From the NCBI GenBank assembly GCA_902586905.1, contig CACIJH010000006.1:9874-73873 (forward strand): a stretch of DNA of 64,000 bases. The letters run 5' to 3'. The notes beneath the pieces were generated by a model, which ran no database searches, was not told the origin of the DNA, and was given only the letters and a program-made list of their open reading frames with translations. Source of the DNA: an uncultured Bacteroidota bacterium (lineage in GTDB: Bacteria > Bacteroidota > Bacteroidia > Flavobacteriales > Flavobacteriaceae). The position numbers and the translations under genes were made by a program. Below, piece after piece: positions 2 to 48,043 of the stretch (position 1 is the stretch's first letter; each line of letters starts with the position of its first letter).

Positions 2-511
2 TCTGGCACAAAAATGGGGATTTTAGCGATTGCGCTTTTTATATTTTTTGTGATAATTAAATCATTTACTTTTAGAACTGTGCTAGGTTTAGTCTGTGGC
101 CTAGCAATAATAAAAAGTCCTAGTTGGATGCCTGGTTTTGTGAGTAAAAGTAGCTTTTGGTCCAATGTATTGGACAGTCATGGTATTTGGGGAGTTCTTT
201 TCTCCCTTCGTGATCAAAAAATATTGGAGTTTTGGGAGATTTTTTCTGAAAACATTTCTCTAAAAACATTTTTATTTGGAGGCACAACAAGGTACTCTCA
301 GCTTTGGGTTGAGGTAGTTCCAATAGATATTCTATCATGGTTTGGGCTTGTTGGATTAACCACCATGTTTCTTTTTCATGTAAAACTCCTTTTATCTTGG
401 GAAAAAACAGTGCCTTTATTCTCTGCATTTGCTGCAGGTTTTTTTGGGCCGTTAGCAATAATCATTTTAGGGTTGTGGTGTTTTTCGTCTAAAAAGATAA
501 ATAAATATTGA
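2..511 (+). CDS. Polytopic membrane protein, C-terminal part (frame open to the left window edge)
   Basis: The frame of ORF 14..511 has no stop back to nt 2. The product is mostly hydrophobic helices (ILAIALFIFFVII, FGLVGLTTMFLF, FFGPLAIIILGLWCF). Its position beside glycan genes suggests an O-antigen ligase/polymerase-type protein, but I recognise no family motif. Confidence 0.35.
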   Translation, partial: SGTKMGILAIALFIFFVIIKSFTFRTVLGLVCGLAIIKSPSWMPGFVSKSSFWSNVLDSHGIWGVLFSLRDQKILEFWEIFSENISLKTFLFGGTTRYSQLWVEVVPIDILSWFGLVGLTTMFLFHVKLLLSWEKTVPLFSAFAAGFFGPLAIIILGLWCFSSKKINKY

Positions 512-556: not shown

Positions 557-1537
557 TTATTCAGAATAGAACAAAAAATCGTCATCCGCAGGTTCAATAA
601 ACTCATGCTGAAGTGTTTTGTGGAGGGCTTTTTCTAGTTTATAGGGAGCTTTAAACGAAGCGTGTGCCTTTGATGCATCAAATTGTGTGTTGGCACAGAA
701 TTTTTTCACACGCACAGAAGATATTGAGAACTTTTTTGCTGTAAGCTTTGAAAGTATATCAAAAAAAAAGCCCACAAGCATTCCAAAAAAATATGGGGTT
801 TTTGTTTTTGGAATGCGTAAATTCATCTTTTTCTCAATAACTGACACCAGTTCCATCATAGTAAAATCCGGTTTGTCTGCGTAATTAAAAACGTGGTAGC
901 CTTGTTCTTTTTTTTCAAGTCGGTCCTTAATAAAAGCAACCACATTGCCTACGTAAGCCATGGATTTTTTGTTTTGCCCCTTACCGATCATCAGAAACTT
1001 CCCTGAGCTAATTTGTTTAAGAAGATTGTACACGTTTCCACGGTTGCGTTCACCAAAAATAACCGTGGGTCTGATGATAGTGACAGATTTACCGATAGGA
1101 TCTTTTTCAAACCATTTTTTGATTACTTGCTCGGCTTGCCATTTGCTTTTCCCATAGTGGTTAAAGGGATCCTCTGGGTGGTCCTCTTTGGGGTTCTGTT
1201 TGTTAAGCCCATAAATGGCAACAGAGCTGGTAAAAACCAGGTGTTTGACACCTGCTTCATCCATTTTTTCAAGCACATTTTTTGTCCCGGTGACGTTGAC
1301 ATCATAATATAGAGAGGTAGGGCTCACATCATCACGGTGTTCGGCAGCCAAAAGAACCACTGCTTTTGTTTGCTTGTCTATAATAATCTCATCTTTCTTT
1401 TGGATATCCCCAATTGTTGTTCTTTCATTGAAAAATGGGGATGGGTTTTTGTCCAAGTTATAGCAGTTTTCAGTGTTAAGTTCTGAAAGAAGTCGAGATC
1501 CTACAAATCCAGATCCTCCAACAATAACACACATCAT
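557..1537 (-). CDS. NAD-dependent sugar-nucleotide epimerase/dehydratase (extended SDR)
   Basis: Rossmann motif VIVGGSGFVGSRL at the N-terminus and catalytic YxxxK as YGKSKWQAE. 326 aa, with a 4-nt overlap with the upstream gene. Confidence 0.85.
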   Translation of the reverse strand: MMCVIVGGSGFVGSRLLSELNTENCYNLDKNPSPFFNERTTIGDIQKKDEIIIDKQTKAVVLLAAEHRDDVSPTSLYYDVNVTGTKNVLEKMDEAGVKHLVFTSSVAIYGLNKQNPKEDHPEDPFNHYGKSKWQAEQVIKKWFEKDPIGKSVTIIRPTVIFGERNRGNVYNLLKQISSGKFLMIGKGQNKKSMAYVGNVVAFIKDRLEKKEQGYHVFNYADKPDFTMMELVSVIEKKMNLRIPKTKTPYFFGMLVGFFFDILSKLTAKKFSISSVRVKKFCANTQFDASKAHASFKAPYKLEKALHKTLQHEFIEPADDDFLFYSE

Positions 1538-2418
1538 GATATTTCTTTTAAAAAGTTAGCATAGTTTTCCCAACCAAAATTTTTTGGAGGTAAGGGCTTT
1601 TCTTGTTTGTTTAGAGGTTCAGATATTGATTTTACACTTAAATCACAAGATGATAAAAACCTCAGAGATTCTTTTGGTGATATCAACCTCTTGTTTAAAA
1701 AAACACAGTCATTCAAAACGCCGCTGAAGGACACGTCTTTGTGGCCGAAAAATATGTAGTCTAAATCTGTTAACAAAGAATAATATCTATTTTCTTCAAT
1801 ATATCCTTTATAATAAGACAGGTTATGTGATTTGAACGGAGGATATCCATCCCCGATACAATAGAAATGATGTTTGGGATATTTAATGGAAATCTCTTTA
1901 AAACGTTTAAAGCCTTTATAGGGCATGTAACGGCCGACTAATCCTATTGTGATTTCTAATTTATCTGAAATTTCTGTTTTTTTATACTCGAATTTGGGTC
2001 CCCCATGTTGAACCACATGCACTCGCTTTGGAAAATAATATTTTTCAGTCTGATGCTTAAGTCGAGTGCTAAAAACCAAAACACGATCGCTTAATAAAAC
2101 CATTAGTTGATTAACTAAAAAAATAATGGGGTTAAGTATCCCAGAATGCGGAATTGGATCGTGGAGATGGAAAAAAATTTTATTGATTCTTAGTTTTAGT
2201 ATAAAAATTAGAAGTGCGTTATACACACTTGTATTATAAATGAAAATATTTGATTTTTTTATTTTTCCGCAATCTACAATTTTAATTAAATGATTCTTCA
2301 ATGAATCTGATTTCATTGAGTAAATTAAGTTCTTTTTGTTGAACTGTTTAAAAATTTCTTTAATGTGATCAAACAATACTGGGTTTAAAGAAATTCCTAC
2401 AAGTTTTATTTTGTTCAT
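1534..2418 (-). CDS. Glycosyltransferase, GT-B fold (GT4/group-1-like), divergent
   Basis: 294 aa. The C-terminal half has GRYMPYKGF and a SGVLNDCVFLNKRLIS segment resembling the GT4 nucleotide-sugar-binding region. Very low GC, inside a glycan operon. Confidence 0.5.
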   Translation of the reverse strand: MNKIKLVGISLNPVLFDHIKEIFKQFNKKNLIYSMKSDSLKNHLIKIVDCGKIKKSNIFIYNTSVYNALLIFILKLRINKIFFHLHDPIPHSGILNPIIFLVNQLMVLLSDRVLVFSTRLKHQTEKYYFPKRVHVVQHGGPKFEYKKTEISDKLEITIGLVGRYMPYKGFKRFKEISIKYPKHHFYCIGDGYPPFKSHNLSYYKGYIEENRYYSLLTDLDYIFFGHKDVSFSGVLNDCVFLNKRLISPKESLRFLSSCDLSVKSISEPLNKQEKPLPPKNFGWENYANFLKEIS

Positions 2419-2427
2419 TTAAAGATT

Positions 2428-3258
2428 TTATTGATCAAGTTGCACTTCTCTTTTGTTTGTATGAATTATTTTTCTTTTTAGTGATTCTGGATTTAAAAGA
2501 CAGTATAATGCAAATTTAGACTTATAAAAATAAATTGAGGAATACTCTTTATTGTTCAGGGAGTAGATTGTGCCTGAAATAAAATTTTTAATAATTTTTA
2601 TAAGGACAAAAGAAAAATAAATCAGTTTGTTTGAAGAGTTGATTTTATTTATGCAATGGCCTAGAATTTGTCTTTTTAATTTTAAGAAAATTGCGTCTTT
2701 TTCTCTCAAATTTGCCACTAAGCTTGTGTTCTTGATTTTTTTATATTTTAAATTCAATCTATTGCAAAAGTCAACATCTCCTGAAGAAAATAGTTTTGCA
2801 TTAAATCCATTAATTGTGTTAAACTTTTCCCTGCTTACTATTAATGAAATGGTTGGGACAAAATTATAATATGTGATAAAAAAATCAATTTTAAATGCGT
2901 TCTTAAAATACCACTTTTCATAGTTGTTTTTTGGCTCTCTATTAAACGTAACGTCAAAGTAACCAATTTCATTTTCTTTAATATCAATTGAAAACTTATT
3001 TGTGAAACTCACATCAGAGTCTAGAAAATATAGCCAATTGCCACAGGATTTTGAAGCTCCAAAATTTCTACAAAAATAACTTCCGTTGATCCCCTTCAGT
3101 TCATAAATTGTAAAGCCAGCTGATGAATAATGTTTGTTTTCAGACTGTCCGTCATTTACAATAATTATTTCTGTTTCATTTTGAATTTTTCTCAAAACAT
3201 TTTTAGCTGTTTTGATTCCTTTTTCTACTGAAACACAGGGGATGATAATGGAAATCAT
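2428..3258 (-). CDS. Family-2 glycosyltransferase (GT-A)
   Basis: MISIIIPCVSVEKGI start, IIVNDGQSEN and an FLDSDV (DxD) motif, all typical of GT2. Confidence 0.75.
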   Translation of the reverse strand: MISIIIPCVSVEKGIKTAKNVLRKIQNETEIIIVNDGQSENKHYSSAGFTIYELKGINGSYFCRNFGASKSCGNWLYFLDSDVSFTNKFSIDIKENEIGYFDVTFNREPKNNYEKWYFKNAFKIDFFITYYNFVPTISLIVSREKFNTINGFNAKLFSSGDVDFCNRLNLKYKKIKNTSLVANLREKDAIFLKLKRQILGHCINKINSSNKLIYFSFVLIKIIKNFISGTIYSLNNKEYSSIYFYKSKFALYCLLNPESLKRKIIHTNKREVQLDQ

Positions 3259-3863
3259 TCGAAAAAGTCTTTTATTAAGTTTTTAAAGTTAAATCTTGCG
3301 TCTGCAAGTTTTGATTTGATTGTGGTCGTGTTTAAGTTAGATTTATTTTTCATTTCCTCTAAAACGTTATCTAAATCTTCAATCTTATTTACCCTTTTTA
3401 AAATTTGTTCAACTGCAGCATTTAAATTGGAAAAGTCAACTTCTAAAACATTATCCCAATCATTCTTAAAGTAATCTAAAGTTTCATAAACGTAATTAAC
3501 ATATGCCAAACAAACATCTATGTTGTTTGAGTCCAGGTTTCTCATGTGAATTCCTTGAGAAAAGGCTTTCATTATATTAATTTTTCTCCATCTTTTGTTA
3601 TAGCTCTCTGCAATAGATTTTCGGTCTCTATTTACAATGACCAATAAGCTTTCTGTTTTGCTGTACTTCTTAGTTAGCTGAGGCATATAAAAGCTTAACC
3701 TGTTATCAAGTTCTATATGAAAATCAGGGTAATTGATTCTCTCATCTTCAAGAAAACTCACTCTGCTTTCGTGTGAGCTTGTGAAACCCGACACACAACT
3801 TAAAGCTTTAGACATTGCAAAAGTTGCGGTTCTGCCTGGACTGATTATAAAAACGTTTTTCAT
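3255..3863 (-). CDS. Candidate PAPS-dependent sulfotransferase (small, divergent)
   Basis: The N-terminal P-loop-like FIISPGRTATFA resembles the 5'-phosphosulfate-binding motif. VIVNRDRKSIAESY resembles the RDPxDxxxS 3'-phosphate-binding motif. 202 aa, overlaps both neighbours by 4 nt, and lies in the same operon as cysDN/cysC/cysQ. Confidence 0.5.
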   Translation of the reverse strand: MKNVFIISPGRTATFAMSKALSCVSGFTSSHESRVSFLEDERINYPDFHIELDNRLSFYMPQLTKKYSKTESLLVIVNRDRKSIAESYNKRWRKINIMKAFSQGIHMRNLDSNNIDVCLAYVNYVYETLDYFKNDWDNVLEVDFSNLNAAVEQILKRVNKIEDLDNVLEEMKNKSNLNTTTIKSKLADARFNFKNLIKDFFE

Positions 3864-4984
3864 TTTTTTGTAATGTAAATTAATATCATGAAGAGAGTTG
3901 CCACTAAAAATCCTGGAATGAGCTTAGTAATAAAATATGATGAAATTCCAAGGGTTGGGGCAGATCTCACCAAAAAATAGGTAGAGTATATAAGAAAAAC
4001 AACTAATAATCCTTTATGATTAGCTAGGTAAATGAGATTTGTAAAAAACCTAATTAAAAACGTAAAAAGGAATAAAATAAAAGGGTAAAAAACATTAGTG
4101 AAATATCCAAAATTTAAATACGCTTCTCCAAATTGTGTTGGAGTCATCACAAAAATTTCTGAATTTATTTTGTTAAAATGTGATGTAACTATTTGTTGCA
4201 TGCTGAGAGTTGTACTACTAAAGACTGATTTAAAATCATTTATGTAACCATAGCCATACATAAATTCATTATTTGTAGTGTATTTCAGTATTCTACTAAT
4301 GTTTACTTCATAATTAATTAAGAAAATCCTTTCAAAGATTGAAAGAATCACTAAAATTATATCCGACTGTGTTCTAATTTTAGTAATAAATACTAACAAA
4401 ATAAAAAACAAAGCGCCCAAAACAAGAATCCTTAAAGAAAAAAAAGTCTTAACTAAATTAATTTTCCTCGTATAAGAATAGGTTAAAAAAGATATAAATA
4501 AAACGTCCATAACTCTTGATCTAAACCCTGTTAAAAGCATTAAAATTATTGTGAGAAGGATCAAAATTATTCTTGTCTTTTTTTTATCCAATGTGAACAA
4601 ACACACATTGTAAATAATAAAAAAGTAATTTGCAGTAGTGATTATTCTATCAAATACTCCTAATCGGTCCGCAAAAATTACCCGATCTAATTCTGGTTTT
4701 TCTGAAAGCAGTGGGGGTGAAAATAAAATTAAGGCCAAAAACAAGCTTGTTGGCCCTAACAAAAATAAAATAATGTTAAAAGTCTTATCTTCGTTGATAA
4801 CGTTGATCTTGATTAAGTTTTTAGAATAGGGAGGATAAAAATTTAAAATTAAAGAACATATTATAATAAAGAACAGACAGTTTAATATCAATAAAAAATC
4901 TCCGAATAAAAATATAGCAATTCCATAAAAAATTAATGAAAAAAACAAGAAAATTGAGACAGATAAATTTGAAAAACTATTCAT
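3860..4984 (-). CDS. Wzy/EpsG-like polysaccharide polymerase (polytopic membrane protein)
   Basis: 374 aa with about 10 hydrophobic helices, very AT-rich, in the typical position in a Wzx/Wzy locus. No catalytic motif can be verified by eye. Confidence 0.5.
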   Translation of the reverse strand: MNSFSNLSVSIFLFFSLIFYGIAIFLFGDFLLILNCLFFIIICSLILNFYPPYSKNLIKINVINEDKTFNIILFLLGPTSLFLALILFSPPLLSEKPELDRVIFADRLGVFDRIITTANYFFIIYNVCLFTLDKKKTRIILILLTIILMLLTGFRSRVMDVLFISFLTYSYTRKINLVKTFFSLRILVLGALFFILLVFITKIRTQSDIILVILSIFERIFLINYEVNISRILKYTTNNEFMYGYGYINDFKSVFSSTTLSMQQIVTSHFNKINSEIFVMTPTQFGEAYLNFGYFTNVFYPFILFLFTFLIRFFTNLIYLANHKGLLVVFLIYSTYFLVRSAPTLGISSYFITKLIPGFLVATLFMILIYITKK

Positions 4985-6077
4985 TTAAGGTTTTTTGTAA
5001 TTTATTATAATGCAGAATAGAAACACTTATTGATATAAATAGGCCAAGTAATGTAATTGAAATGATAGTGTTCAATAAATTGTAAAAAATAATGGTTGTG
5101 GCCAAAACAGCCAGATCAATAATTAATTTATAACCTCTTTGATTTAAAAAAACCAATAGCCACCCGCTGGCACCAACAGAGTAGTGAGCTACAATTGTTA
5201 ATGCAGTGAAAATAAGTGACATAGTAATCTTTGAATCTAGATTTAATATAAAAAGGTTTATTAAGTACAGTATAATGCTTAACCCAAAACAATAGATTAT
5301 TGAAATATATAAATTTTGTGAAATGTTTTTTTTAAACAACATTGATAAAGTCGATGTTTTTTCATTTCTTGCAAACTCACCAATAAATTTATGTTGGTTA
5401 GCTATGTAAAGAGATTTACCCATCTTTACTACATAGAATAATAAGAAAATATCTCCCCCCTCTTTTCCATAAATTGAAAAAATTAACACCGTTTCAATAT
5501 TAGATAATGCAAAATTACTACAGGATGAAGCCCATGAATAAAAAGATTGTTTTTTAAAAAAGGTCTGATTCGTCTGGATATAGTTTAATTCGGTCTTAAT
5601 TTGTTTCATTATAAGGCCGTAAGTAAAAAAAAACGCCAACAATATTGTTAAAGTTATTTTTACAGTGAAATCTGTGGGGATTAACAAAAAAATCAACCAA
5701 ATTTTTGACCATAAAAAGTTTGAAAGTAATAATTTTTCTTTTTTTAAATTTAATAAGCTAAATACATTTGAAGAACTATTAAAAAAAACTAATAAAAGTG
5801 AAAGAAGATGATTTAAAACAAACTCTTTAGAATAATAAAAAACATCAAAAACAAATAGCAACATTAATGTGAACGTTAATGGAACTAACAGAAACTCTTT
5901 CTCTGTTTTTAGTTGTTCAACTTGGTTTCCAAAAAATCCAACTGAGTAGCTAAAGTTGCTCAAAAAAACTATTATCGTAACAATAAATTGTTCGTCAGTA
6001 TTATATAACCTTTTACTAAAAAAAATTATTAGTACAGGGATTATAAAGGACAGTAAACGATTAAAATAATTGATCAA
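4977..6077 (-). CDS. Wzx-like flippase / polytopic membrane protein
   Basis: 366 aa and hydrophobic throughout. Overlaps the Wzy-like gene by 8 nt and the acetyltransferase by 4 nt. Shorter than classical Wzx, so the assignment rests on context only. Confidence 0.4.
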   Translation of the reverse strand: MINYFNRLLSFIIPVLIIFFSKRLYNTDEQFIVTIIVFLSNFSYSVGFFGNQVEQLKTEKEFLLVPLTFTLMLLFVFDVFYYSKEFVLNHLLSLLLVFFNSSSNVFSLLNLKKEKLLLSNFLWSKIWLIFLLIPTDFTVKITLTILLAFFFTYGLIMKQIKTELNYIQTNQTFFKKQSFYSWASSCSNFALSNIETVLIFSIYGKEGGDIFLLFYVVKMGKSLYIANQHKFIGEFARNEKTSTLSMLFKKNISQNLYISIIYCFGLSIILYLINLFILNLDSKITMSLIFTALTIVAHYSVGASGWLLVFLNQRGYKLIIDLAVLATTIIFYNLLNTIISITLLGLFISISVSILHYNKLQKTLNE

Positions 6078-6661
6078 TTTAATGTAGTATTAAAAAACTC
6101 GGCGTTTTTTTTGATTTTTTTAACATCCCATTCCCACCATTTTGATTTTAAAAATTCATGTTGGCCTTTTTTATCAAATCTAGTCCGGATTAAAACAGCG
6201 GGGTTTCCAGCAATAACACTAAAATCATCAAATTTTTTTGTGACTACACTTCCTGCTCCAACGACACACCCCTTACCAATTCCTGCTCCAGGTAAAAAAG
6301 TAACATTATCACCAATCCACGATCCATCGCCAACTTCAATTTTTCCCTTAAAAACAGTTAAACTGGAAATACCCAATTTATTTTGAAGATAATCTTGAAT
6401 GTTTGGGTAATTAATTGAATGATTTCGGTGTCTTACTCTAAAATTATGTGCAATTGCACAATAATTTCCAATCATTGTTTCATTCGAAATAAAACATATT
6501 CCATTAATTCTAGTTCCTTTTCCAATTTTTACATTAAAACCAATATTTGAACAAGGGTGAATAAAGGATGCTTTTTTAAATCTGTACTTATACTTGATTA
6601 AAAAAAATAGTTTAAGTATTAAGTTTTTTAAAATAATTTTAAAATTAAAAATAACCCTCAT
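6074..6661 (-). CDS. Hexapeptide-repeat (LbH) acetyltransferase, XAT/CatB-Vat-like; probable sugar O-acetyltransferase
   Basis: Hexapeptide repeats IGDNVTFLPGAGIGKGCVVGAGSVV, followed by the AGNPAVLIRTRF and KWWEWD tail typical of xenobiotic-type acetyltransferases. Confidence 0.8.
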   Translation of the reverse strand: MRVIFNFKIILKNLILKLFFLIKYKYRFKKASFIHPCSNIGFNVKIGKGTRINGICFISNETMIGNYCAIAHNFRVRHRNHSINYPNIQDYLQNKLGISSLTVFKGKIEVGDGSWIGDNVTFLPGAGIGKGCVVGAGSVVTKKFDDFSVIAGNPAVLIRTRFDKKGQHEFLKSKWWEWDVKKIKKNAEFFNTTLN

Positions 6662-6672
6662 AGATATGTTTA

Positions 6673-7926
6673 TTAAATTATCATCCCCGCTCCCACAGTT
6701 TCATAGGTTTGAGGGTCAATTAAAATTAAACTTCCTGTGCTTCTGTTGCGTTTGTAGTGGTCTGTAAAAAACGGTTGAGCCACCCTTAGGTTTACCCTTC
6801 CGATCGAATTTAACCCTAACTCGGTGACGCCCTCAATGCGGTGAAGTGTGTTGATGTCCACTTCATAAAGGATGTCCCCCACCATGGCTTTGGTCTCCAA
6901 GGTGGTATGTTTTACCAAAAGCTTTCTGCTGGAAGTGAGTGATTTTTCATTCATCCATGTAACCAGCAGCTCTAGGTTTTGTTGAATATCTGGAGAATTA
7001 TTTTCGCGGACAAGCATATCGCCTCGACTAATGTCAATTTCATCCTCTAGAGTCATCGTGACTGACATGGGCGAAAATGCCTCATTAACCTTTTTTTTCC
7101 CAACATAAATCTCCTTGACTTTGGTGGTAAAACCAGACGGCAGCGCTTTGATGGAGTCGCCTGGCTTAAATACACCCCCTTCTATTCTACCAGCATACCC
7201 TCTAAAGTCCTGAAATCCCTCGCGGTGAGGACGTATGACCGTTTGTATGGGAAAGCGACAATCGACATGGTTTAAATCGCTTGAAATATGAACGTTCTCC
7301 AACTCATGAATCAAAGTCCCTCCTTTATACCAAGGCATGTTTTCAGATTTGTTGACCACATTATCCCCAACCAATGCTGAGATAGGAATAAATCGGATGT
7401 CCTTCACGTTGAGTTTAGAAGAAAAGCTTTCATAATCAGAAACAATTTTGTTAAACACATCTTCGCTATAATCCACCAAATCCATTTTGTTAACACACAC
7501 AATTACGTGTGGAATTCCCAATAGGGATGCTATAAAAGAGTGCCGGTGTGTTTGCTCCAGCATGCCCTTACGCGCATCGATCAAAATAATGGCCAAATTA
7601 GCTGTTGAAGCGCCCGTCACCATGTTTCGTGTGTACTGTACGTGTCCTGGGGTATCAGCGATAATAAATTTGCGTTTGGGTGTTTCAAAATAGCGGTATG
7701 CCACATCGATGGTGATTCCTTGCTCTCTTTCAGATTTTAAACCATCTGTCAATAGCGAAAGATCCACATAATCAAACCCTTTGTTCTTTGAGGACTCCTC
7801 CACAGCTTCCAATTGGTCTTGAAAAATCGCTTTGGAATCATATAGCAATCGGCCTATGAGTGTGCTTTTTCCATCATCTACACTTCCTGCGGTTGTAAAA
7901 CGTAAAATTTCTTTTTGAGATTTCAT
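6673..7926 (-). CDS. cysN: Sulfate adenylyltransferase subunit 1 (GTPase)
   Basis: G motifs GSVDDGKSTLIGRLL, DTPGHVQYTRNM and NKMD. 417 aa, with no fused kinase domain. Confidence 0.95.
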   Translation of the reverse strand: MKSQKEILRFTTAGSVDDGKSTLIGRLLYDSKAIFQDQLEAVEESSKNKGFDYVDLSLLTDGLKSEREQGITIDVAYRYFETPKRKFIIADTPGHVQYTRNMVTGASTANLAIILIDARKGMLEQTHRHSFIASLLGIPHVIVCVNKMDLVDYSEDVFNKIVSDYESFSSKLNVKDIRFIPISALVGDNVVNKSENMPWYKGGTLIHELENVHISSDLNHVDCRFPIQTVIRPHREGFQDFRGYAGRIEGGVFKPGDSIKALPSGFTTKVKEIYVGKKKVNEAFSPMSVTMTLEDEIDISRGDMLVRENNSPDIQQNLELLVTWMNEKSLTSSRKLLVKHTTLETKAMVGDILYEVDINTLHRIEGVTELGLNSIGRVNLRVAQPFFTDHYKRNRSTGSLILIDPQTYETVGAGMII

Positions 7927-7949
7927 TTAGGTCTGGTCTTGTAAGTCGT

Positions 7950-8855
7950 TTAAAAATACCCTTGTTTCTTTCTATCTTCCATGGCGGTTTCGCCTCTTTT
8001 GTCGTCTGCCCTTGAACCCCTTTCGGTGGTTCTGGTAGTGGCGATTTCATTAATGATTTCATCAATCGTTGTAGCATGAGACTCCACCGCTCCAGTGATG
8101 GGCATATCTCCACAAGTGCGATAACGTACCGTCATTTCTACCACTTCTTCGCCCTCTTTTAAGGGTAAATATGGGCCTTCTGCGAGGATTACACAATCAC
8201 GAACAACACATCTTCTGTTGTGTGAATAGTAGAGTGAAGGCAACTCAATGTTTTCGCGTTTGATATATTCCCATACATCCATTTCTGTCCAGTTTGAAAT
8301 AGGAAAAACCCTAAAATGTTCTCCCATTTGTTTTTTCGGATTGAAAAGATTCCAAAGCTCTGGCCTTTGGTTCTTTGGGTCCCATTGTCCAAAGGCATCT
8401 CTGTGTGAAAAAAACCGTTCTTTTGCCCGGGCTTTTTCCTCATCACGACGCGCACCGCCCATAGCGCCATCAATTTTGTGATTTTCAAGACATTCTAAAA
8501 GTGTTTCTATCTGTAGAAAATTTCTTGAAGCATTTGCCCCGGTTTCTTCCTTTACAAGCCCCCTGTCAATGGCGCTCTGTACAGAGCCAACAATTAAATT
8601 AACCCCCAGCTTTTCAGCAAGATTATCTCTAAACGAAATGGTTTCTGGAAAATTGTGCCCTGTATCAACATGAATCAAAGGGAAAGGAATTCGCGCTGGA
8701 TAAAAGGCTTTTTTGGCAAGGTGTGTAAGAACAATTGAATCCTTACCCCCAGAAAATAGAAGTGCCGGGTTTTCAAAAGACGACACGACTTCACGAATGA
8801 CAAAAATGGCTTCGGATTCGAGTTCGTCTAAATGTGTAAGGTTGTAATTTCCCAT
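7950..8855 (-). CDS. cysD: Sulfate adenylyltransferase subunit 2
   Basis: PAPS-reductase-fold PP-loop FSGGKDSIVL. 301 aa, with a conserved C-terminal ...DKRGETAMEDRKKQGYF. Confidence 0.95.
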   Translation of the reverse strand: MGNYNLTHLDELESEAIFVIREVVSSFENPALLFSGGKDSIVLTHLAKKAFYPARIPFPLIHVDTGHNFPETISFRDNLAEKLGVNLIVGSVQSAIDRGLVKEETGANASRNFLQIETLLECLENHKIDGAMGGARRDEEKARAKERFFSHRDAFGQWDPKNQRPELWNLFNPKKQMGEHFRVFPISNWTEMDVWEYIKRENIELPSLYYSHNRRCVVRDCVILAEGPYLPLKEGEEVVEMTVRYRTCGDMPITGAVESHATTIDEIINEIATTRTTERGSRADDKRGETAMEDRKKQGYF

Positions 8856-9869
8856 TTATTTGAGTTTAGTCATTAGGTGATTAAAAATCATTTCGGTGGC
8901 TTCTTCTACTGAATTGTTTGATGTGTCTATAGAAATATCTGGAGCATTCGGAGATTGATATGGTGCAGAAATTCCTGTGAAATTGTCTATTTCACCAGCT
9001 CGTGCTTTTGCATAAAGCCCTTTGATATCTCTTTTCTCGCACTCCTCAATAGGTGTACATACATAGATTTCAATGTAATTTTGAGCACCTACTATCTGAC
9101 GAACCATATTTCTGTCTTTTTCAAACGGTGATATGAATGATGCACATACCACCAAGCCCGCATCCAGCATAAGGTGCGCAATTTCTGAAATTCTACGGAT
9201 ATTTTCTTTTCTGTCTGCCTCGGTAAAGCCTAAATTGCTGTTAATTCCAGATCGAACGTTGTCTCCGTCAAGGGCATAGGTTGCGAAACCAGCCGCAAAA
9301 AGACGTTTTTCAGTAGCGTTGGATAACGTCGACTTTCCTGATCCTGAGAGTCCTGTGAACCATATAAGCTTACCTTTTTGACCGAGCCTTTCTTCTCTTT
9401 CTTGTTGCGTCACCTCAAAATCGTGAGCTACAATATTTGTTTTTGCGTCCGTTTCTTTTTTAGCTTTTCTTTTATTGCGTTGATCTAGTCCAAAATTTAT
9501 CCGATACCAAAGTTTTTCATGAAAGAAATACAAGATCATTTTAGTGATTGTCTCCGCCCCGCCAATTTGAAGCCCTGCAGAGATGTCGCCTAATATGATC
9601 CAACTAATGATTATGGTGTCTAAGGTGCCTATAAGCCTCCATGTAAACGTTTTATAGATGTGCCTTTTGTTAGGGTTCTGTATTGTAGACTTAAACCATG
9701 CTCTTTCATGGAGATAATACCAAATCATTTTGGTAATGATTGTGTAGGCCGAAATACTCACGCCCTTTTCCACATTTCCGCTTAATAGCCACGCAAAAAG
9801 AAGGGTGTCTAAAGTGCCAATTGCCCTCCAGGAGAAAGTTTTGGCTATATGTCTTTTGGCAACTTTCAT
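8856..9869 (-). CDS. cysC: Adenylylsulfate (APS) kinase fused to an N-terminal duplicated DUF2061-like membrane domain
   Basis: The C-terminal half carries the P-loop FTGLSGSGKSTL plus LDGDNVR and FISP motifs of CysC. The N-terminal 130 aa hold two copies of the KTF(S/T)WR.IGTLDT... hydrophobic repeat. The stop abuts the cysD start. Confidence 0.9.
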   Translation of the reverse strand: MKVAKRHIAKTFSWRAIGTLDTLLFAWLLSGNVEKGVSISAYTIITKMIWYYLHERAWFKSTIQNPNKRHIYKTFTWRLIGTLDTIIISWIILGDISAGLQIGGAETITKMILYFFHEKLWYRINFGLDQRNKRKAKKETDAKTNIVAHDFEVTQQEREERLGQKGKLIWFTGLSGSGKSTLSNATEKRLFAAGFATYALDGDNVRSGINSNLGFTEADRKENIRRISEIAHLMLDAGLVVCASFISPFEKDRNMVRQIVGAQNYIEIYVCTPIEECEKRDIKGLYAKARAGEIDNFTGISAPYQSPNAPDISIDTSNNSVEEATEMIFNHLMTKLK

Positions 9870-10672
9870 TTTGTGTCTCTAGATACTATAAAGAAAGGGT
9901 TTAACAAATTCTTTTTATTGTAAGAAAGGTGTTCAGATGTCTCCGCAGCAACCATTTTGCAACCAGCATATGTGGCTACTGCGTGAGCTGCTGCCGTATC
10001 CCACTCCATTGTGGGTCCAAAACGAGGGTAGCAATGGGCATGTCCTTCTGCTACTTTGCAAATTTTTAATGAGCTTCCAAAAGATTTAGATGCTACTGCC
10101 CCGTGCTCTATTTTCATTTTATGAATATAATCCTCCGTTTCTTGATTCATGTGTGATTTGGACACCACCAATGTAAATGTCTTCGGAAGATGTTGATTAC
10201 TGTTACTCAAATCAATGTGAAATGAATTTTCTAATTGGTCAAAGTCCGAAATGTCTTCAATTTTAAAAGCGCCTAAGCCATGTTCTGCATAATACAATAC
10301 CTTTGTAGCGGGCACATAAACCACCCCCAATACAGGCGAGTTGTGCCGGATGAGGGCGACGTTGACCGTGAATTCGCCATTTCGTTTGATAAATTCTTTG
10401 GTGCCATCTATGGGGTCTAACATCCAAAATGATTCCCAAGATTTTCTTTCTTCATAGACACAAATATCATCTTCCTCTGAGAGAATTGGCAGGTTTGAAG
10501 AAGCCAGAATGTCTGTAATAATTTTATGCGATGCCTTGTCAGCCCTTGTAAGTGGAGAGTTGTCTTGCTTTAATTCTACAGCAAAATCTTCAGAGTTATA
10601 TATCTCCATAATCATCTCGCCAGCGGCAAAAGCAGCGGAAAGGGCAATTGATAGATTATCTGAATAATTCAA
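9866..10672 (-). CDS. cysQ: 3'(2'),5'-bisphosphate nucleotidase (PAP phosphatase), IMPase family
   Basis: WMLDPIDGTKEF metal-binding motif and the EEDD acidic motif. 268 aa, with a 4-nt overlap with the cysC fusion. Confidence 0.85.
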   Translation of the reverse strand: MNYSDNLSIALSAAFAAGEMIMEIYNSEDFAVELKQDNSPLTRADKASHKIITDILASSNLPILSEEDDICVYEERKSWESFWMLDPIDGTKEFIKRNGEFTVNVALIRHNSPVLGVVYVPATKVLYYAEHGLGAFKIEDISDFDQLENSFHIDLSNSNQHLPKTFTLVVSKSHMNQETEDYIHKMKIEHGAVASKSFGSSLKICKVAEGHAHCYPRFGPTMEWDTAAAHAVATYAGCKMVAAETSEHLSYNKKNLLNPFFIVSRDTK

Positions 10673-10732
10673 AAATGTTTGTGTTATTTTTTTGATTGAC
10701 TTTTTAATTAAAGTTGTTGTTTAAAACTTTTT

Positions 10733-10825
10733 TTAATCAAAAACACGCATCCGACCGCACATAGAATCAGCCAAATAGGCCTCGTCTTGACCTGTAACTC
10801 CTGTGATTAATGCTGTTTTATTCAT
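10733..10825 (-). pseudogene. Relic of the 5' end of GDP-mannose 4,6-dehydratase (gmd)
   Basis: An unlisted 30-codon ORF translates to MNKTALITGVTGQDEAYLADSMCGRMRVFD*. The first 20 or so residues match the conserved Gmd N-terminus (..ALITGITGQDGSYLAE..), after which similarity stops. It lies in an otherwise unexplained 160-bp gap in a tightly packed operon. Confidence 0.45.
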
Positions 10826-10833
10826 TTGTTTTC

Positions 10834-11259
10834 CTAATGTTTTTTTAACAACCAACTACTACTCTGTATCTTCTCGCCCAGCCCATCGATCAGCGCTACC
10901 CCTAAATCCTTACATACGGGTATTTCAGGAATGGTCTCGTTGTTTTGATCACCCCCATTGGCAAAGGCCAGTTCGAGGGTGTCGCCATAGTCCTCCGCGA
11001 TTTTGGCAATCGTTTGGCAGACTGTTCGGTCTTGGTCTATGGAAAGAATGGCTTTGTCCACCGCTTTGATGTTGGAGACAATCAACATACGTTCTTCCTC
11101 GTCTTGGAAGGGCTTGCTGCCTTTTAATTCCCTTTGACAATCGTTGTTGACAATCACAAACAGTTCGTCACACAAGGCTTTGGCATTATTAAAATACTCC
11201 AAATGCCCTTTGTGCAGGGGGTTAAAATAGCCCGAAACGATGATTGCCTTTTTCTTCAT
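10834..11259 (-). CDS. Cytidylyltransferase-like nucleotidyltransferase (TagD / RfaE-domain-II type)
   Basis: HxGH motif in VSGYFNPLHKGHLEYF. 141 aa. The start overlaps the glmS stop (TAATG). Confidence 0.7.
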   Translation of the reverse strand: MKKKAIIVSGYFNPLHKGHLEYFNNAKALCDELFVIVNNDCQRELKGSKPFQDEEERMLIVSNIKAVDKAILSIDQDRTVCQTIAKIAEDYGDTLELAFANGGDQNNETIPEIPVCKDLGVALIDGLGEKIQSSSWLLKKH

Positions 11260-13100
11260 TATTCCACCGTTACGGATTTTGCTAGGTTTCTAGGCTGATC
11301 CACATTACAACTGCGCATGACAGCGATGTGATAGGCAAGTAACTGCAAGGGGACTGATGCCAAAATGGGCGTAAGGGACTCTGTCACTTCTGGGATCTCA
11401 ATCACATGATCCGCCAATGATTTGACAGACTTATCGCCCTTGGTCACAACGGCAATGATTTTCCCATCTCTGGATTTAATTTCTTGGATATTGCTCACAA
11501 CCTTTTCATAATGCCCTTTGTTAGTAGCAATCACCACCACAGGCATGTTTTTGTCGATAAGCGCAATAGGGCCATGTTTCATTTCTGCTGCAGGATAGCC
11601 CTCTGCGTGTATGTAGGAGATTTCCTTTAGCTTTAGCGCCCCTTCCAAAGCCACTGGAAAATTATACCCCCGGCCTAAATACAAAAAGTTGGCAGCATCT
11701 TTGTAATTTTTTGCAATCTGCTGAATCTCCTTTTCACTTTTCAGTACGGTTTGTACGGCATTGGGAAGGGTTTCCAATTCCTCGGCAACACGATTAAACT
11801 CTTCTGCTGATAATGTTCCGCGCAATTGCCCCAAACGCAATCCAATCAAGATCAAGAGTGTGATTTGAGTAGTAAACGCCTTAGTCGATGCCACCCCAAT
11901 TTCTGGGCCTGCATGGGTGTAGGCACCTGTATCCGCAACGCGGGCAATGGAGCTTCCCACCACATTACAAATCCCAAAGACAAAAGCCCCTGATTCTTTG
12001 GCCAGCTTGATCGCTGCTAAAGTGTCTGCTGTTTCGCCAGACTGAGAAATCGCAATCACGACATCGTCTTTATCAATCACGGGGTTGCGATAGCGAAACT
12101 CGGATGCGTATTCCACCTCAACAGGGATACGAGCTGCATCTTCAAACAAATATTCGCCCACCAAGCCTGCGTGCCAAGAGGTGCCACAAGCAACAATAAT
12201 GATTCTTTTGGCTTTCTGAAACACCTCTTTGTGTTCTTCTAACCCAGACAATAAAATCTGTTGTTCATCCCTATGAAGCCTTCCCCTAAAGGTGTCGATA
12301 ATGGCATTGGGCTGCTCATAAATCTCTTTGAGCATAAAATGGTCATAACCCCCTTTCTCTATTTTTTCCAAACTAAGTTGCAGTTCTTGAATATGTGGAT
12401 CAACCCGACTATTGTCTGGAATCGCGTACATTTTTAATCCCTTGTCTTGGTTGATGACTGCCATTTCGTTGTCTTCCAAATAAATGGAACGATTGGTATA
12501 TTCAATAAAAGGGGAAGCGTCAGATGCTATAAAGTATTCATCTTTCCCAAGGCCAATGGCCAATGGGCTTCCGAGTTTGGCAACCACCACTTCTTTGGGT
12601 CTTTCTTTGTCAAAAACAGCAATGGCATAGGCACCAACCACTTGATTAAGCGCAATTTGAACGGCTTTTCCTGTTTTGAGTCCTTGCGTGATTTGAATGT
12701 GTTCAATCAGGTTGACCAAAACTTCTGTGTCTGTTTCAGAAGAGAAGCTAAACCCCTGGTCAGTCAAATAGGATCGTAGTGATTCGTAGTTTTCAATGAT
12801 CCCATTGTGAACCAATACCAAACGACCAGAGTTGGAGGTGTGTGGGTGAGCATTCACATCATTGGGAACACCATGTGTTGCCCAGCGTGTATGGCCAATG
12901 CCAAGTGTGCCAGAGCGATGATTTTGTTCTGCCTTTGCTTCCAAATCTGCAACTTTTCCTTTGGTTTTGGTCAGGTGTAATTCGCTGTTGAGTAAGGCAA
13001 TCCCTGCACTGTCATAACCTCGATATTCAAGGCGTTTTAACCCCTGAATTATAATAGGATATGCAGCGCGATATCCGATATAACCTACAATTCCACACAT
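11259..13100 (-). CDS. glmS: Glutamine--fructose-6-phosphate aminotransferase
   Basis: MCGIVGYIG N-terminal nucleophile, two SIS domains and the C-terminal ...LAKSVTVE. 613 aa. Confidence 0.97.
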   Translation of the reverse strand: MCGIVGYIGYRAAYPIIIQGLKRLEYRGYDSAGIALLNSELHLTKTKGKVADLEAKAEQNHRSGTLGIGHTRWATHGVPNDVNAHPHTSNSGRLVLVHNGIIENYESLRSYLTDQGFSFSSETDTEVLVNLIEHIQITQGLKTGKAVQIALNQVVGAYAIAVFDKERPKEVVVAKLGSPLAIGLGKDEYFIASDASPFIEYTNRSIYLEDNEMAVINQDKGLKMYAIPDNSRVDPHIQELQLSLEKIEKGGYDHFMLKEIYEQPNAIIDTFRGRLHRDEQQILLSGLEEHKEVFQKAKRIIIVACGTSWHAGLVGEYLFEDAARIPVEVEYASEFRYRNPVIDKDDVVIAISQSGETADTLAAIKLAKESGAFVFGICNVVGSSIARVADTGAYTHAGPEIGVASTKAFTTQITLLILIGLRLGQLRGTLSAEEFNRVAEELETLPNAVQTVLKSEKEIQQIAKNYKDAANFLYLGRGYNFPVALEGALKLKEISYIHAEGYPAAEMKHGPIALIDKNMPVVVIATNKGHYEKVVSNIQEIKSRDGKIIAVVTKGDKSVKSLADHVIEIPEVTESLTPILASVPLQLLAYHIAVMRSCNVDQPRNLAKSVTVE

Positions 13101-13102
13101 AC

Positions 13103-14515
13103 TTATTCGATTCCTTTTCCAATCTCATAGGCAATAAAGCCAATGGATTGCAAGTGATTATGGTCTAAAATTTTTCTTCCGTCAAACACAAAAGCGGGCT
13201 TTTCCATTTGATTATAAATCTTTTTAAAGTCTTGGGTTTTAAACTCATCCCACTCTGTAATAACGGCTAACCCATGGGCTTTCTTACATGCTACCTCAGC
13301 AGAATCGACACTATGGAGTTTTGCTAACTTTCCGTTGATGTCTGTTTCCGTTTCTCCACGGAACTCCCATAAAGTTTGTAGATCCATCTGCATCCGAGCT
13401 AAAGACACTTTTGGGTCATACACAACAATCTCCGCACCTTCAGAGAGTAATTGATCTGCTACATAAATCGCTGCGGATTCTCGTGTGTCGTTGGTATCCT
13501 TTTTAAAGGCCCAACCCCAAAAGGCAATTTTTTTACCATTCACCGTATTGAATAAGGCCTGTTGAATTCGATTGGCAAACCGATTCTTCTGGTAATCGTT
13601 TATGGTAATAACGCCCTTCCAATAGTCGGCTACTTCATCTAGCCCATATTGCTGGCAGAGATAAACTAGATTTAAAATATCTTTTTGAAAACAGCTCCCT
13701 CCAAAACCGATGGATGCTTTTAAAAATTTGGGTCCAATCCGACTGTCCTTGCCAACTGCTGTGGCAACTTCTTCCACATCTGCACCTGTGGCTTCGCAAA
13801 GGGCAGAAATACTGTTGATGGAACTAATCCGTTGAGCCAAAAAAGCATTGGACACAAGTTTTGAAAGCTCGGATGACCATACATTGGTGGTCACAATTTT
13901 TTCACGTGGAATCCAATTTGCATAAATGTCAACCAATGCCTCAACGGCCTTTTTGCCTTTAGGTGTTGTGCGTCCTCCAATCAACACTCGATCTGATTTA
14001 AACAAATCGGCAATGGCTGTTCCTTCGGCTAAAAACTCGGGGTTGGACAGTACCTCAAAATGTGCTCCGTGGGGTGATTGTTCCAATATGGTTTGTATTG
14101 CCTCTGCTGTTCGAACAGGAAGTGTACTTTTTTCGACCACTATTTTGTCAGTCGTTGCAACTTCGGCAATTCGTCGGGCGCATTGTTCTACGTATGTTAG
14201 ATCTGCTGCCATCCCTTTGCCTTTACCATAGGTTTTGGTGGGAGTGTTCACAGCGATAAAAATAATATCTGCCTCCTCTATGGCTTTGTCGATATCTGTT
14301 GAAAAAAAGAGGTTTTTGTTTCGTGCTTTTGCCACAACTTCAGCCAAACCAGGTTCGTATATGGGTAGTTTGTCCAAGTCGGGGTCATTCCAAGCAGCAA
14401 TGCGCTCTTCGCTGATGTCAACCACATTAACTGTCATATTGGGACACTGCCTAGCGATCACCGCCATGGTGGGTCCGCCTACATAGCCAGCTCCAATACA
14501 ACATATCTTATTCAT
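13103..14515 (-). CDS. ugd: UDP-glucose 6-dehydrogenase, long eukaryote-like form
   Basis: [43 protein letters not shown] and [10 protein letters not shown] are near-colinear with animal/plant UGDH as I remember it. I prefer the MNKICC start at 14515 over the track start at 14536. Confidence 0.93.
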
Positions 14516-15197
14516 CGCTGTTGGTTTTGGTTGCAAAAGTAGGAATTTTATAGGTGAGCATCAGCCCTCCACGATAAGCAACAACTTCTCCTGATCCATT
14601 GAATGGTCGATAAACCTTCTCGTCTGGATTGTCCAAGTCAACCCGCCGAAGGCCTTTGTAGCCTTTATACCATGACTGTGCTAGCCCAGCGCCAATGAAG
14701 AACTCTAAACCAAACCCCTTTTTCAATCGTTTTTTATATCCAATTGTCAGCCCATAAAACGCCGCACGACCAGAGTGGTACTCATCATCTGGAATATCAA
14801 AACGATTTTCTACACCTTCTTTTTCTTCCCAATAGTCATAAATGACAGCAAAGTTTGGCTTTTGAAGGGTGAACATACCAAAGCCAAGGTGTGGGGCAAT
14901 AAACCAATTTTGGGTATCTTCTTTACGATACCATCGATATTCTAAAAACACTTGGTTTACATGAAAAGGGGTGTCGTCGAGAAGTGGTTGTTCGTCCCAA
15001 AACGAAGCAAGTACATCGAGTTGAAACGATTGTTTTTCACTCACAGGGACTTCAAGTCCAAAATTGGGAATTAAAAATGGAAGTGTTGCTAAGTTGACTT
15101 TTGCCTCGGTTTGAGCAATTACTGATGAGTTAATTAAAAGCAAGAATATTAGGTGTTTGACTTGAATAAAAGTCTTTGTGTGGGGTCTTTTGTACAT
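14508..15197 (-). CDS. Secreted outer-membrane beta-barrel-like protein (DUF3575-like)
   Basis: Signal peptide [15 protein letters not shown]. Alternating aromatic/aliphatic beta-strand pattern, and the protein ends in an aromatic-rich strand. The family name comes from memory only. Confidence 0.5.
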
Positions 15198-15202
15198 AAT
15201 AT

Positions 15203-16492
15203 CTAGTTTAGTAGGTTTCTTTTGAAATAATAAATGAGCTGACGCTTGTCGTTGGGGTCTTTTACGATTTTAATGATGCTTTTCCCCACAAGTTTTTTCA
15301 TCAGTGTGTTGATGGATTCAATGGCATCTGCTTTTCTTTTGTTGTTTTGTGAATCACTCAGGTCATCTCGCCCTATCAATTGAAGGATATCATCTGTTGT
15401 TGCTCTCAACTTTGATTGCAACAATACCAATATCATCTCCTCCTCTTCAGATAGCGCAAAAAACTCAAGTTTATTGCGTATTCCTCCACGCACCAAACGA
15501 GGCGTACGCATACGAACCACAATCACCCATAGGTAACCCAAAGTAATGATAACAAAAGCAAGCACAGCAGCATATGTAAGGTTTAAAAATAAAGTCCTTT
15601 GGTCAAAGTAGAGGCGTTCTACTTTTTCTGGGTTAGCAAAAGTGCCTATACCCAATGCTTTTCCATATAGTTGGTTGTTTTTGAAATAATACAGTGAATC
15701 CCCTCTAAAAAAGGCTGGTTCAGATTTACTGATATTGGCAGAAGTAAGTCCTTGATTATAAAATAAAACATTGTTGTTTTTCAAATCTACCACTAGATTT
15801 TGTTCTGTATCAATTGGATGGCCAAACAAATAAAACAAACTGTCTTTTTGTACAATTTTATAGGGGGACAAATTAACTGCTGTTTTTCCTAGGTTTGTCC
15901 ACTTTCTTGTGATAAAGTCAAATGTCCATATGTCTTTGTTACTTTCACCCTCAAGCCCTGTGAATTTATCAATCTCTAGGCCGCCCACACTATAAAAAGT
16001 GTCTCCCAACAAAAAACAGGAACCACCATAAGCTTCAGAAGGGAAGCTAAATCCTTTGGTGGGATAATATTCCCATTCTGTTGTCGATTCATCAAAATAA
16101 GTAAAAAAGTTGTTTGCGCGCCAAAAACCATATCCCCCATAGCGAAAAAGAGTGTCGCGATAAACAAACTGACTCGCTTTCTTCTGCTTTCGGTGTTGAT
16201 ATGATCGATCGATCCGTAAGGTCTTTTCTTTTTCAATTCGATAAATCAACCCCCCCTTGTTGCTGGTCAGATGAAGTGCATCGCTGTACCAAATGGCTGA
16301 ATAGTCAGGATAATCTTCAGGTATTGGCTCTAATAGGAAAGTGTCCCGTTTTTTGGTTAAAAAATGCTCCTTAATAATCCTGTCTTCGTAAAACCGATAA
16401 GTAGATTCGTTGGTTTTATCGTACCAGGTCTTAACAGCTGTAGGAGACTGGGCGAAAAGGGGGAGTGTAAAAAGGATTAATAATAGTCGCAT
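15203..16492 (-). CDS. Single-pass membrane protein: extracytoplasmic kelch/beta-propeller-like domain, TM helix, cytoplasmic winged-helix domain
   Basis: Start chosen at MRLLLILFTLPLFAQS (signal peptide). Repeated ...F.YGGYG..., ...FYSVGG..., ...LFYLFG... and ...LYYF... blocks are kelch-like. The TM helix is YAAVLAFVIITLGYLWVIVV. The 103-aa tail with EEEMILVLLQSKLRATTDDILQLIG and a KKLVGKSIIKIVKDPNDKRQLIYYF wing looks like a MarR/PadR-type wHTH. Confidence 0.6.
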   Translation of the reverse strand: MRLLLILFTLPLFAQSPTAVKTWYDKTNESTYRFYEDRIIKEHFLTKKRDTFLLEPIPEDYPDYSAIWYSDALHLTSNKGGLIYRIEKEKTLRIDRSYQHRKQKKASQFVYRDTLFRYGGYGFWRANNFFTYFDESTTEWEYYPTKGFSFPSEAYGGSCFLLGDTFYSVGGLEIDKFTGLEGESNKDIWTFDFITRKWTNLGKTAVNLSPYKIVQKDSLFYLFGHPIDTEQNLVVDLKNNNVLFYNQGLTSANISKSEPAFFRGDSLYYFKNNQLYGKALGIGTFANPEKVERLYFDQRTLFLNLTYAAVLAFVIITLGYLWVIVVRMRTPRLVRGGIRNKLEFFALSEEEEMILVLLQSKLRATTDDILQLIGRDDLSDSQNNKRKADAIESINTLMKKLVGKSIIKIVKDPNDKRQLIYYFKRNLLN

Positions 16493-16532
16493 AAAAATAA
16501 GACTATTTTGTTTTTTGTTTTGCAAAGATACG

Positions 16533-48040: not shown

Positions 48041-48043
48041 AGT

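Follow-up and report, generated by a model that had tools for sequence, protein, structure and literature searches.

A Flavobacteriaceae surface-polysaccharide locus that appears to carry its own sulfation module

Does a locus that assembles a bacterial surface polysaccharide also carry what is needed to sulfate it? The question is raised by a 64,000-nucleotide (nt) stretch of DNA, henceforth the window, from an uncultured marine Bacteroidota bacterium of the family Flavobacteriaceae (assembly GCA_902586905.1, contig CACIJH010000006.1, positions 9,874 to 73,873 of the forward strand). In this window, genes for making 3'-phosphoadenosine-5'-phosphosulfate (PAPS) from adenosine-5'-phosphosulfate (APS), and for removing the by-product 3'-phosphoadenosine-5'-phosphate (PAP), stand in the middle of a series of polysaccharide genes. 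The minus-strand gene unit running from 16492 down to 557 is best explained as the variable-cassette arm of a surface-polysaccharide locus that depends on Wzx/Wzy and carries its own sulfation module. From sequence comparison and structure modelling, we put the probability that the locus makes a sulfated glycan with a divergent enzyme of 202 amino acids (aa), encoded at 3255-3863, at roughly 65%.

The predicted set of enzymes for PAPS supply and PAP disposal is complete, each of its four members scoring above a curated cutoff. CysQ, the 3'(2'),5'-bisphosphate nucleotidase that removes PAP, is encoded at 9866-10672 (TIGR01331, 273 bits, cutoff 229), and is followed on the same minus strand by the APS kinase CysC, fused to two DUF2061 repeats (8856-9869; PF09834 twice; PF01583, 211 bits; NF003013, 277 bits, cutoff 163), by CysD (7950-8855; NF009214, 431 bits, cutoff 413) and by CysN, which has no fused kinase (6673-7926; NF003478, 592 bits, cutoff 590). 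A first-pass annotation, made from the letters alone, had recognized these four genes in the middle of the unit and had reported that cysH, sulfite reductase and sulfate transporter genes are missing from the window; both statements hold. The remainder of the window consists of housekeeping genes.

The fused arrangement of CysC in the window contrasts with three other loci (L046, L018 and L022), in which DUF2061 and CysC are encoded by separate, adjacent genes. There, a separate open reading frame (ORF) of 142-147 aa lies directly upstream of cysC (L046, 9998-11017; L018, 9983-10998; L022, 8072-9111), and the DUF2061 half of the window protein aligns to it. This conserved pairing joins CysC to an uncharacterised protein, described in Pfam as a predicted membrane protein, that has no assigned function.

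The block is part of a tightly packed series of genes. Where about 17 genes had been proposed to form one transcription unit, the ORF list and junction table give 16 genes and a 30-codon remnant of gmd, and every junction named in the first-pass annotation was reproduced. Neighbouring genes overlap or lie at most 23 nt apart, save for one gap of 161 nt: overlaps of 4 nt occur at 1534-1537, 3255-3258, 3860-3863, 6074-6077 and 9866-9869, overlaps of 8 nt at 4977-4984 and between the DUF3575 gene and ugd, and an overlap of 1 nt at 11259, while cysC and cysD abut without a gap (8855/8856) and the other gaps span 2-23 nt. The 161-nt gap falls between a nucleotidyltransferase-like gene and cysQ and contains the gmd remnant. 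A Bacteroidota-type -7 box (TAtcTTTG, 16523-16530, minus strand) lies 30 nt upstream of the first gene, where it may serve as the promoter; between 400 and 17000, no other TAnnTTTG lies in an intergenic position of the minus strand. A sigma-70 promoter scan, which does not model Bacteroidota promoters, remained at chance level (54 sites, 54.7 expected), and the terminator-like hairpins that were found lie inside coding regions. The genes form one compact unit.

The reading turns on the 202-aa protein, for which sulfotransferase-like PAPS-binding motifs had been suspected from the start. Structure prediction for this ORF returns a sulfotransferase fold. Its AlphaFold model (pLDDT 77.5, pTM 0.73) has an alpha/beta fold with a central parallel sheet that it would have in common with solved sulfotransferases, and in a Foldseek search of the PDB the top six matches are all sulfotransferases, namely SULT7A1, the CurM sulfotransferase domain, heparan sulfate 3-OST-3, 3-OST-1, NDST1 and SgdX2, at a TM-score of about 0.5 and a probability of 0.96-1.0. 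With the heparan sulfate 3-O-sulfotransferases, NDST1 and the CurM domain, the protein has in common the alpha/beta fold, the 5'-phosphosulfate loop and the R...S 3'-phosphate motif, at an identity of 11-16% that does not imply shared substrate specificity. These enzymes have about 260-320 residues as opposed to 202, so that the window protein would have a minimal acceptor-binding region.

Profile searches point in the same direction by way of the family. A word-indexed search yielded just six close homologues of the protein, whereas an exhaustive profile search with its family collected 621 cluster representatives. Among 82 aligned family members, 37 match Sulfotransfer_3 (best E 3.8e-7) and 30 match Sulfotransfer_4 (best E 2.8e-8). 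Six residues (G10, R11, H49, E51, D53 and S87) are invariant across the 82 members, and R79 is found in at least 90% of them. The stretch I7-S-P-G-R-T-A-T14, located after the first strand, is a candidate 5'-phosphosulfate loop of the P/T-K/R-x-G-[ST]-T type; V-N-R79-D-R-K-S-I-A-E-S87 is a candidate 3'-phosphate motif (R-x7-S after a beta-strand); and H49-x-E51-x-D53 holds candidate catalytic residues. In local hhalign comparisons the I7-T14 loop aligned with IPKSGGTS of a Sulfotransfer_2 protein and the R79...S87 region with FLFRNPLAQLAS of a Sulfotransfer_3 protein, neither alignment being significant alone; the family profile compared with these single proteins (Sulfotransfer_3 from L022, Sulfotransfer_2 from L046) was not significant overall, and the two motif regions alone aligned. 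Searches of PDB chains with the sequence and with 7- and 82-member profiles gave nothing significant, the CurM sulfotransferase appearing at E 0.99. Taken together, structure, transitive profile homology, motifs and genomic context make the assignment of the protein as a predicted sulfotransferase well supported.

Genomic context is informative for the closest relatives. Other loci of the Wzx/Wzy type hold homologues at 47-53% identity, with a stand-alone APS kinase and a DHH phosphatase encoded next to them. The locus of one of them (P0003, 53% identical) encodes an APS kinase, a DHH phosphatase, Wzx, a Wzy-like protein, GT1 and GT2 glycosyltransferases, the sulfotransferase and an epimerase; next to the gene of a second (P0005, 48%) lie those of an APS kinase, a DHH protein and a possible flippase resembling MatE, and this locus includes glycosyltransferases of the GT2, GT1/GT4 and WecG types; and a third (P0004) adjoins GT2 and GT1 genes near Wzz and Wza. 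NrnA-type DHH proteins act as PAP phosphatases and can stand in for CysQ. The P0003 and P0005 loci do not contain cysDN, and a private APS kinase therefore makes sense there only for sulfotransfer.

Two further loci repeat the predicted design of the window, a PAPS block inside a polysaccharide locus, with other sulfotransferase families. The first, from an uncultured Flavobacteriaceae bacterium (L046, 8492-19397), has the closest CysC relative (55%) and reads NTP-transferase, Gmd, Fcl-like, Ugd, DUF2061, CysC, CysQ, acetyltransferase, Sulfotransfer_2, Wzx, unknown, GT4, GT4 and acyltransferase. The second (L022, 9-14618) has the CysD (79%) and CysN (73%) closest to those of the window among the loci compared, in the order Wzc, NusG-like, a homologue of the window's small nucleotidyltransferase-like protein, ManC, Fcl, Gmd, DUF2061, CysC, CysD, CysN, CysQ, Wzx and Sulfotransfer_3; it is binned as Porticoccaceae, a label that its GC content of 35% casts doubt on. 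Across 80 cysC loci examined, no member of the 202-aa sulfotransferase family is encoded at a distance of up to 10 kb. The remnant of gmd in the window (10733-10825, minus strand) is a 30-codon ORF, MNKTALITGVTGQDEAYLADSMCGRMRVFD, that corresponds to the N-terminus of GDP-mannose 4,6-dehydratase and reads MNKTALITGVTGQDEAYLADS. An intact gmd lies immediately upstream of the cys genes in L022, and two genes upstream of ugd in L046. With a remnant where L022 has the intact gene before the cys block, the junction has therefore been remodelled, and the window locus looks like an altered L022-type layout.

Several observations weigh against this reading. The Foldseek E-values of the 202-aa protein are modest (about 1e-3 to 4e-2), with P-loop kinases appearing lower in the list, and the protein itself has no significant match in Pfam or NCBIfam (Sulfotransfer_3 E 0.055, Sulfotransfer_4 E 0.095). 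The flippase is unassigned, the AlphaFold model of the protein at 4977-6077 being unusable at a pLDDT of 39.8. Within the unit, the 161-nt gap with the gmd remnant parts cysQ from the upstream genes, and a single transcript is likely rather than proven because TAnnTTTG boxes also lie inside coding regions (10 more matches, including one that precedes the ugd start by 19 nt). Sulfation is an activity predicted from sequence and models. GC content, moreover, divides the unit: it is 0.26-0.31 in the six genes from the acetyltransferase through a 294-aa protein (1534-6661), 0.39-0.42 in the cys genes, 0.43-0.44 in ugd and glmS, and 0.39-0.45 in the genes flanking the cassette. The low GC of 1534-6661 is the compositional signature of a presumably swappable, horizontally exchanged serotype cassette. 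The sharp boundary thus assigns the sulfotransferase to this cassette, downstream of a PAPS block with the GC of the genome core, and the cys module may be its fixed, possibly housekeeping, neighbour.

Could cysQ-cysC-cysD-cysN then be ordinary sulfate activation genes, serving other sulfated metabolites or assimilation by way of a PAPS reductase encoded at another place in the genome, that merely lie beside the cassette? Besides the GC boundary, the distribution of the genes speaks for this: cysQ-cysC-cysD-cysN clusters occur widely in the Bacteroidota whether or not polysaccharide genes accompany them, and many loci of the phylum hold the cys block with no recognisable polysaccharide genes among their homologues of window genes. 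The cysC-cysD-cysN core, often accompanied by cysQ, is so common that, taken alone, this would argue for adjacency and nothing more. Assimilation through PAPS reductase likewise requires CysQ, as established for the E. coli pathway, and the gmd remnant marks a remodelled junction. Mere adjacency is nonetheless at odds with L046 and L022, two independent loci that place the cys block between nucleotide-sugar genes and Wzx together with a sulfotransferase of a different family. In the window itself, just 11 nt separate cysN from the acetyltransferase gene, and the cassette directly downstream encodes the sulfotransferase-fold protein, whose homologues keep a private APS kinase and DHH phosphatase even where the locus has no cysDN. 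We consider the ordinary-activation explanation unlikely, although it survives better than the others.

A second possibility accepts the 202-aa protein as a genuine PAPS-dependent sulfotransferase and has it act on a lipid, small metabolite or protein instead of the exported polysaccharide. The acceptor cannot be read from sequence, and Bacteroides offers a precedent in pairing PAPS synthesis with a steroid sulfotransferase: BtSULT of Bacteroides thetaiotaomicron is a PAPS-dependent enzyme acting on steroid acceptors (PMC13449962). Similar cysQ...cysC-cysD-cysN blocks are also found in loci of Bacteroidaceae and Prevotellaceae. BtSULT, which we take to adjoin cysC, cysD, cysN and cysQ, comes from the same phylum as the window, yet it acts on steroids and small molecules rather than a glycan and lies outside any polysaccharide assembly operon. 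The window gene, by contrast, overlaps wzy upstream and a GT2 gene downstream by 4 nt each, and the three genes travel together across unrelated loci: in both L007 and L013 the sulfotransferase gene has a homologue of the Wzy candidate beside it (E 4e-35 and 5e-23, respectively) and adjoins a GT2 homologue. In wider relatives of about 660-1100 residues, an N-terminal sulfotransferase-like domain is even physically fused to a GT2 domain (P0012, P0017, P0023, P0027, P0046, P0057 and P0081). One such fusion, WP_266044106.1 from Microbulbifer thermotolerans, is annotated solely as a family 2 glycosyltransferase, its sulfotransferase half being invisible to Pfam. A non-glycan acceptor accordingly strikes us as improbable. 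Least credible of all, and rejected here, is that the protein is a P-loop kinase or another nucleotide-binding modifier of glycans, for instance by phosphorylation: uridine-cytidine kinase and guanylate-kinase-like domains do appear at lower probability in the Foldseek list and its direct Pfam sulfotransferase matches fall short of significance, but the invariant loop G-R-x-x-[ST]-T has no Walker-A lysine (G-K-[ST]), the family matches sulfotransferase models and not kinase models, the best structural matches are sulfotransferases throughout, and an APS kinase and PAP phosphatases keep recurring next to the family.

Under the preferred reading of a locus with its own sulfation module, the product is best read as a PAPS-fed, O-acetylated, sulfated, Wzy-dependent heteropolysaccharide exported via Wza and Wzz. 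CysD and CysN would convert sulfate into APS, and the DUF2061-CysC fusion, through the kinase attached to its predicted-membrane-protein domain, would phosphorylate APS to PAPS. The 202-aa sulfotransferase, presumably cytoplasmic, would then use PAPS to sulfate a sugar in the repeat unit carried on undecaprenyl diphosphate, most likely acting together with the adjacent GT2 enzyme; the acceptor and the timing at the cytoplasmic face are our inference. CysQ would hydrolyse PAP, an inhibitory by-product, and the hexapeptide transferase would O-acetylate the repeat unit, which might be flipped by an orphan membrane protein before polymerization by Wzy and export through Wzz and Wza.

Which sugars would such a polymer contain? 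A backbone of glucuronic acid and N-acetylhexosamine (HexNAc), resembling a glycosaminoglycan (GAG), had been proposed on the strength of ugd and glmS, and the proposal finds no support here. The locus is Wzy-dependent with two small glycosyltransferases, and the window contains neither a heparosan-, chondroitin- or hyaluronan-type synthase (of the KfiA/KfiC, KfoC, PmHS or HasA type) nor a Kps-type ATP-binding cassette (ABC) transporter, its export genes being of the Wzy/Wzz/Wza type. The remainder of the proposal, an O-acetylated, sulfated surface glycan leaving through Wza and Wzz, is retained as the best reading. Ugd points to a uronic acid among the sugars, and the WecA-type enzyme described below to a reducing-end HexNAc. 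The sister assembly L001 (GCA_902617005.1, 13353-18406) adds an unannotated 390-aa gene, rmlD, rmlC, rmlA, rmlB and a Bac_transf-type initiating transferase; the rml genes and this second initiating enzyme lie just beyond the left edge of the window, which suggests that rhamnose is as likely a component as any GAG sugar. The first ORF of the window (14-511, plus strand) is the C-terminal part of the unannotated 390-aa membrane protein. Since the rml genes continue from it in L001, the polysaccharide region extends past the left edge, with two candidate initiating enzymes.

The genes of the cassette differ in how firmly they can be named. Its first gene encodes a hexapeptide-repeat acetyltransferase (6074-6661; PF00132, partial NeuD/WbbJ/Vat-type matches; GC 0.287). 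Next comes a polytopic membrane protein of 366 aa (4977-6077) with about 10-12 hydrophobic helices, whose candidacy as flippase follows from position and membrane topology alone. It was earlier labelled Wzx-like; homology to Wzx is not detectable, the protein having no family match in Pfam or NCBIfam and just two matches, 100% and 83% identical, among 5.8 billion proteins. If it is a flippase, it is an extreme orphan. The neighbouring protein (3860-4984), with about 10 hydrophobic segments, is probably the Wzy-type repeat-unit polymerase: topology and the homologues in related loci favour the earlier label, while its profile matches stay below threshold (PF01901, 23.7 bits, cutoff 24.2; TIGR04370, 19 bits, cutoff 40). 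Downstream of the sulfotransferase gene lies that of its conserved partner, a soluble GT2 glycosyltransferase of 276 aa (2428-3258; PF00535, PF10111). The second of the two glycosyltransferases originally listed, the 294-aa protein at 1534-2418, is probably a GT-B (GT4-like) enzyme, as suggested by one weak phmmer match (E 1.7e-6) to a GT4 protein of L014; it has no Pfam, NCBIfam or PDB sequence match. The last gene of the unit (557-1537; PF01370, 102 bits) encodes a short-chain dehydrogenase/reductase (SDR) of the nucleotide-sugar epimerase/dehydratase family. Among its solved relatives by sequence search, an uncharacterised SDR oxidoreductase is best and many UDP-hexose 4-epimerases also appear; a homologue follows the sulfotransferase in L007.

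At the other end, the unit opens with a Kelch-repeat protein bearing an N-terminal signal peptide (15203-16492; Kelch-family Pfam matches), whose ATG at 16492, the start originally given, is followed by MRLLLILFTLPLFAQ. A DUF3575 protein (14508-15197; PF12099, 61 bits) comes second. Ugd, starting at 14515, is most likely a UDP-glucose 6-dehydrogenase (13103-14515; TIGR03026, 344 bits, above the nucleotide-sugar dehydrogenase cutoff), its top equivalog-level match being the UDP-glucose dehydrogenase TuaD. GlmS (11259-13100; TIGR01135, 836 bits, cutoff 418) may simply be the housekeeping copy. A small cytidylyl/adenylyl-transferase-like protein of 141 aa (10834-11259; PF01467) has RfaE-like 3glv and TagD-type proteins as its closest solved relatives, and its homologue heads locus L022. 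Divergent from the unit, a WecA-type polyprenyl-phosphate HexNAc-1-phosphate transferase starts at 16545 on the plus strand (16545-17615; PF00953, 113 bits; TIGR02380, 135 bits, below cutoff). It is followed on the minus strand by a Wzz-type chain-length regulator (17612-18682; PF02706, PF13807) and a Wza-type outer-membrane polysaccharide exporter (18694-21090; PF02563 and five SLBB repeats), so that an initiating sugar-phosphate transferase, a co-polymerase and an exporter are all present by Pfam. The profile matches in these flanks and in the cassette agree with the names first given to Ugd, GlmS, the nucleotidyltransferase, WecA, Wzz, Wza, the acetyltransferase, the GT2 enzyme and the SDR epimerase.

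Elsewhere in the window, genes for one DUF6909 and one GH3-family (acyl-acid amido synthetase-like) protein (21094-24224, minus strand) adjoin wza upstream on the same strand; DUF3575, DUF4837 and DUF6909, all represented in the window, are families typical of Bacteroidota. Together with the -7 box and the closest relatives of the cys genes, they point to this phylum. Farther away, lepA (46818-47837, minus strand) lacks its first ~269 codons, which occur nowhere else in the window, and an opposite yceD/DUF177-like ORF, accompanied by rpmF (plus strand, about 47825-48240), lacks its N-terminus. Both genes are cut at the same point, about 47811-47830, and the break reflects a real rearrangement or else a chimeric join made in assembly.

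How does the locus compare with known systems? The classical case is rhizobial, where NodPQ/NodH and LpsS/KpsS stand for dedicated ATP sulfurylase and APS kinase supplying PAPS to a glycan sulfotransferase; there, NodQ is a CysN-CysC fusion and the acceptor a lipo-chitooligosaccharide, whereas CysN of the window is separate and lies inside a Wzy-type operon. The capsule cluster of Vibrio sp. KMM 8419 contains second copies of cysC, cysN and cysD along with sulfotransferases, and, together with Cobetia marina KMM 1449, resembles the window in placing PAPS genes and sulfotransferases in a polysaccharide cluster. These are, however, gammaproteobacterial clusters that export through an ABC transporter (Kps), have sulfotransferases of recognisable families and leave CysC unfused, while the window is from Bacteroidota, uses Wzy/Wza/Wzz, includes cysQ, fuses CysC to DUF2061 and encodes a sulfotransferase that escapes Pfam and NCBIfam. 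The synechan (xss) cluster of Synechocystis has, to our knowledge, no PAPS-synthesis genes. It is like the window a Wzx/Wzy-type exopolysaccharide locus with embedded sulfotransferases, and its sulfated product has been demonstrated genetically (PMC8205485); it differs in being cyanobacterial and in its sulfotransferase families.

A biosynthetic route to a sulfated glycan had been thought uncharacterised in Bacteroidota. Among the papers searched, we found none characterising sulfated polysaccharide biosynthesis in Flavobacteriia or Bacteroidota; the underlying logic, on the other hand, is published for Vibrio, Cobetia, cyanobacteria and rhizobia, and flavobacterial-type loci with annotated sulfotransferases exist. 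The novelty lies in the phylum, in a sulfotransferase subfamily missed by curated models and in the DUF2061-CysC fusion, whereas the design itself is already known. In a metagenome survey based on PF13469, sulfotransferases were reported to be absent from all Bacteroidetes genome bins (PMC9723792), and divergent enzymes like the 202-aa protein would escape surveys of this kind.

A wider generalization can be offered tentatively, and we hold it to be rather less probable than the reading of this one locus: marine Flavobacteriales, which are mostly seen as consumers of sulfated glycans from algae, may commonly make sulfated capsules or O-antigens by combining a fixed PAPS module (DUF2061, CysC, CysD, CysN and CysQ) at the head of the locus with exchangeable cassettes, each supplying a different sulfotransferase. 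The 202-aa protein might then stand for a large, essentially unannotated minimal class, often fused to GT2, that surveys with standard models miss. If the reading is true, Bacteroidota, a phylum cast as degrader in thinking about the marine carbon and sulfur cycles, would join the bacterial producers of sulfated surface glycans. There is demand for compact bacterial polysaccharide sulfotransferases accompanied by genes that supply PAPS and remove PAP, for use in the microbial production of sulfated polysaccharides, and the pairing and fusion of sulfotransferase and GT2 would provide a concrete handle on acceptor specificity.

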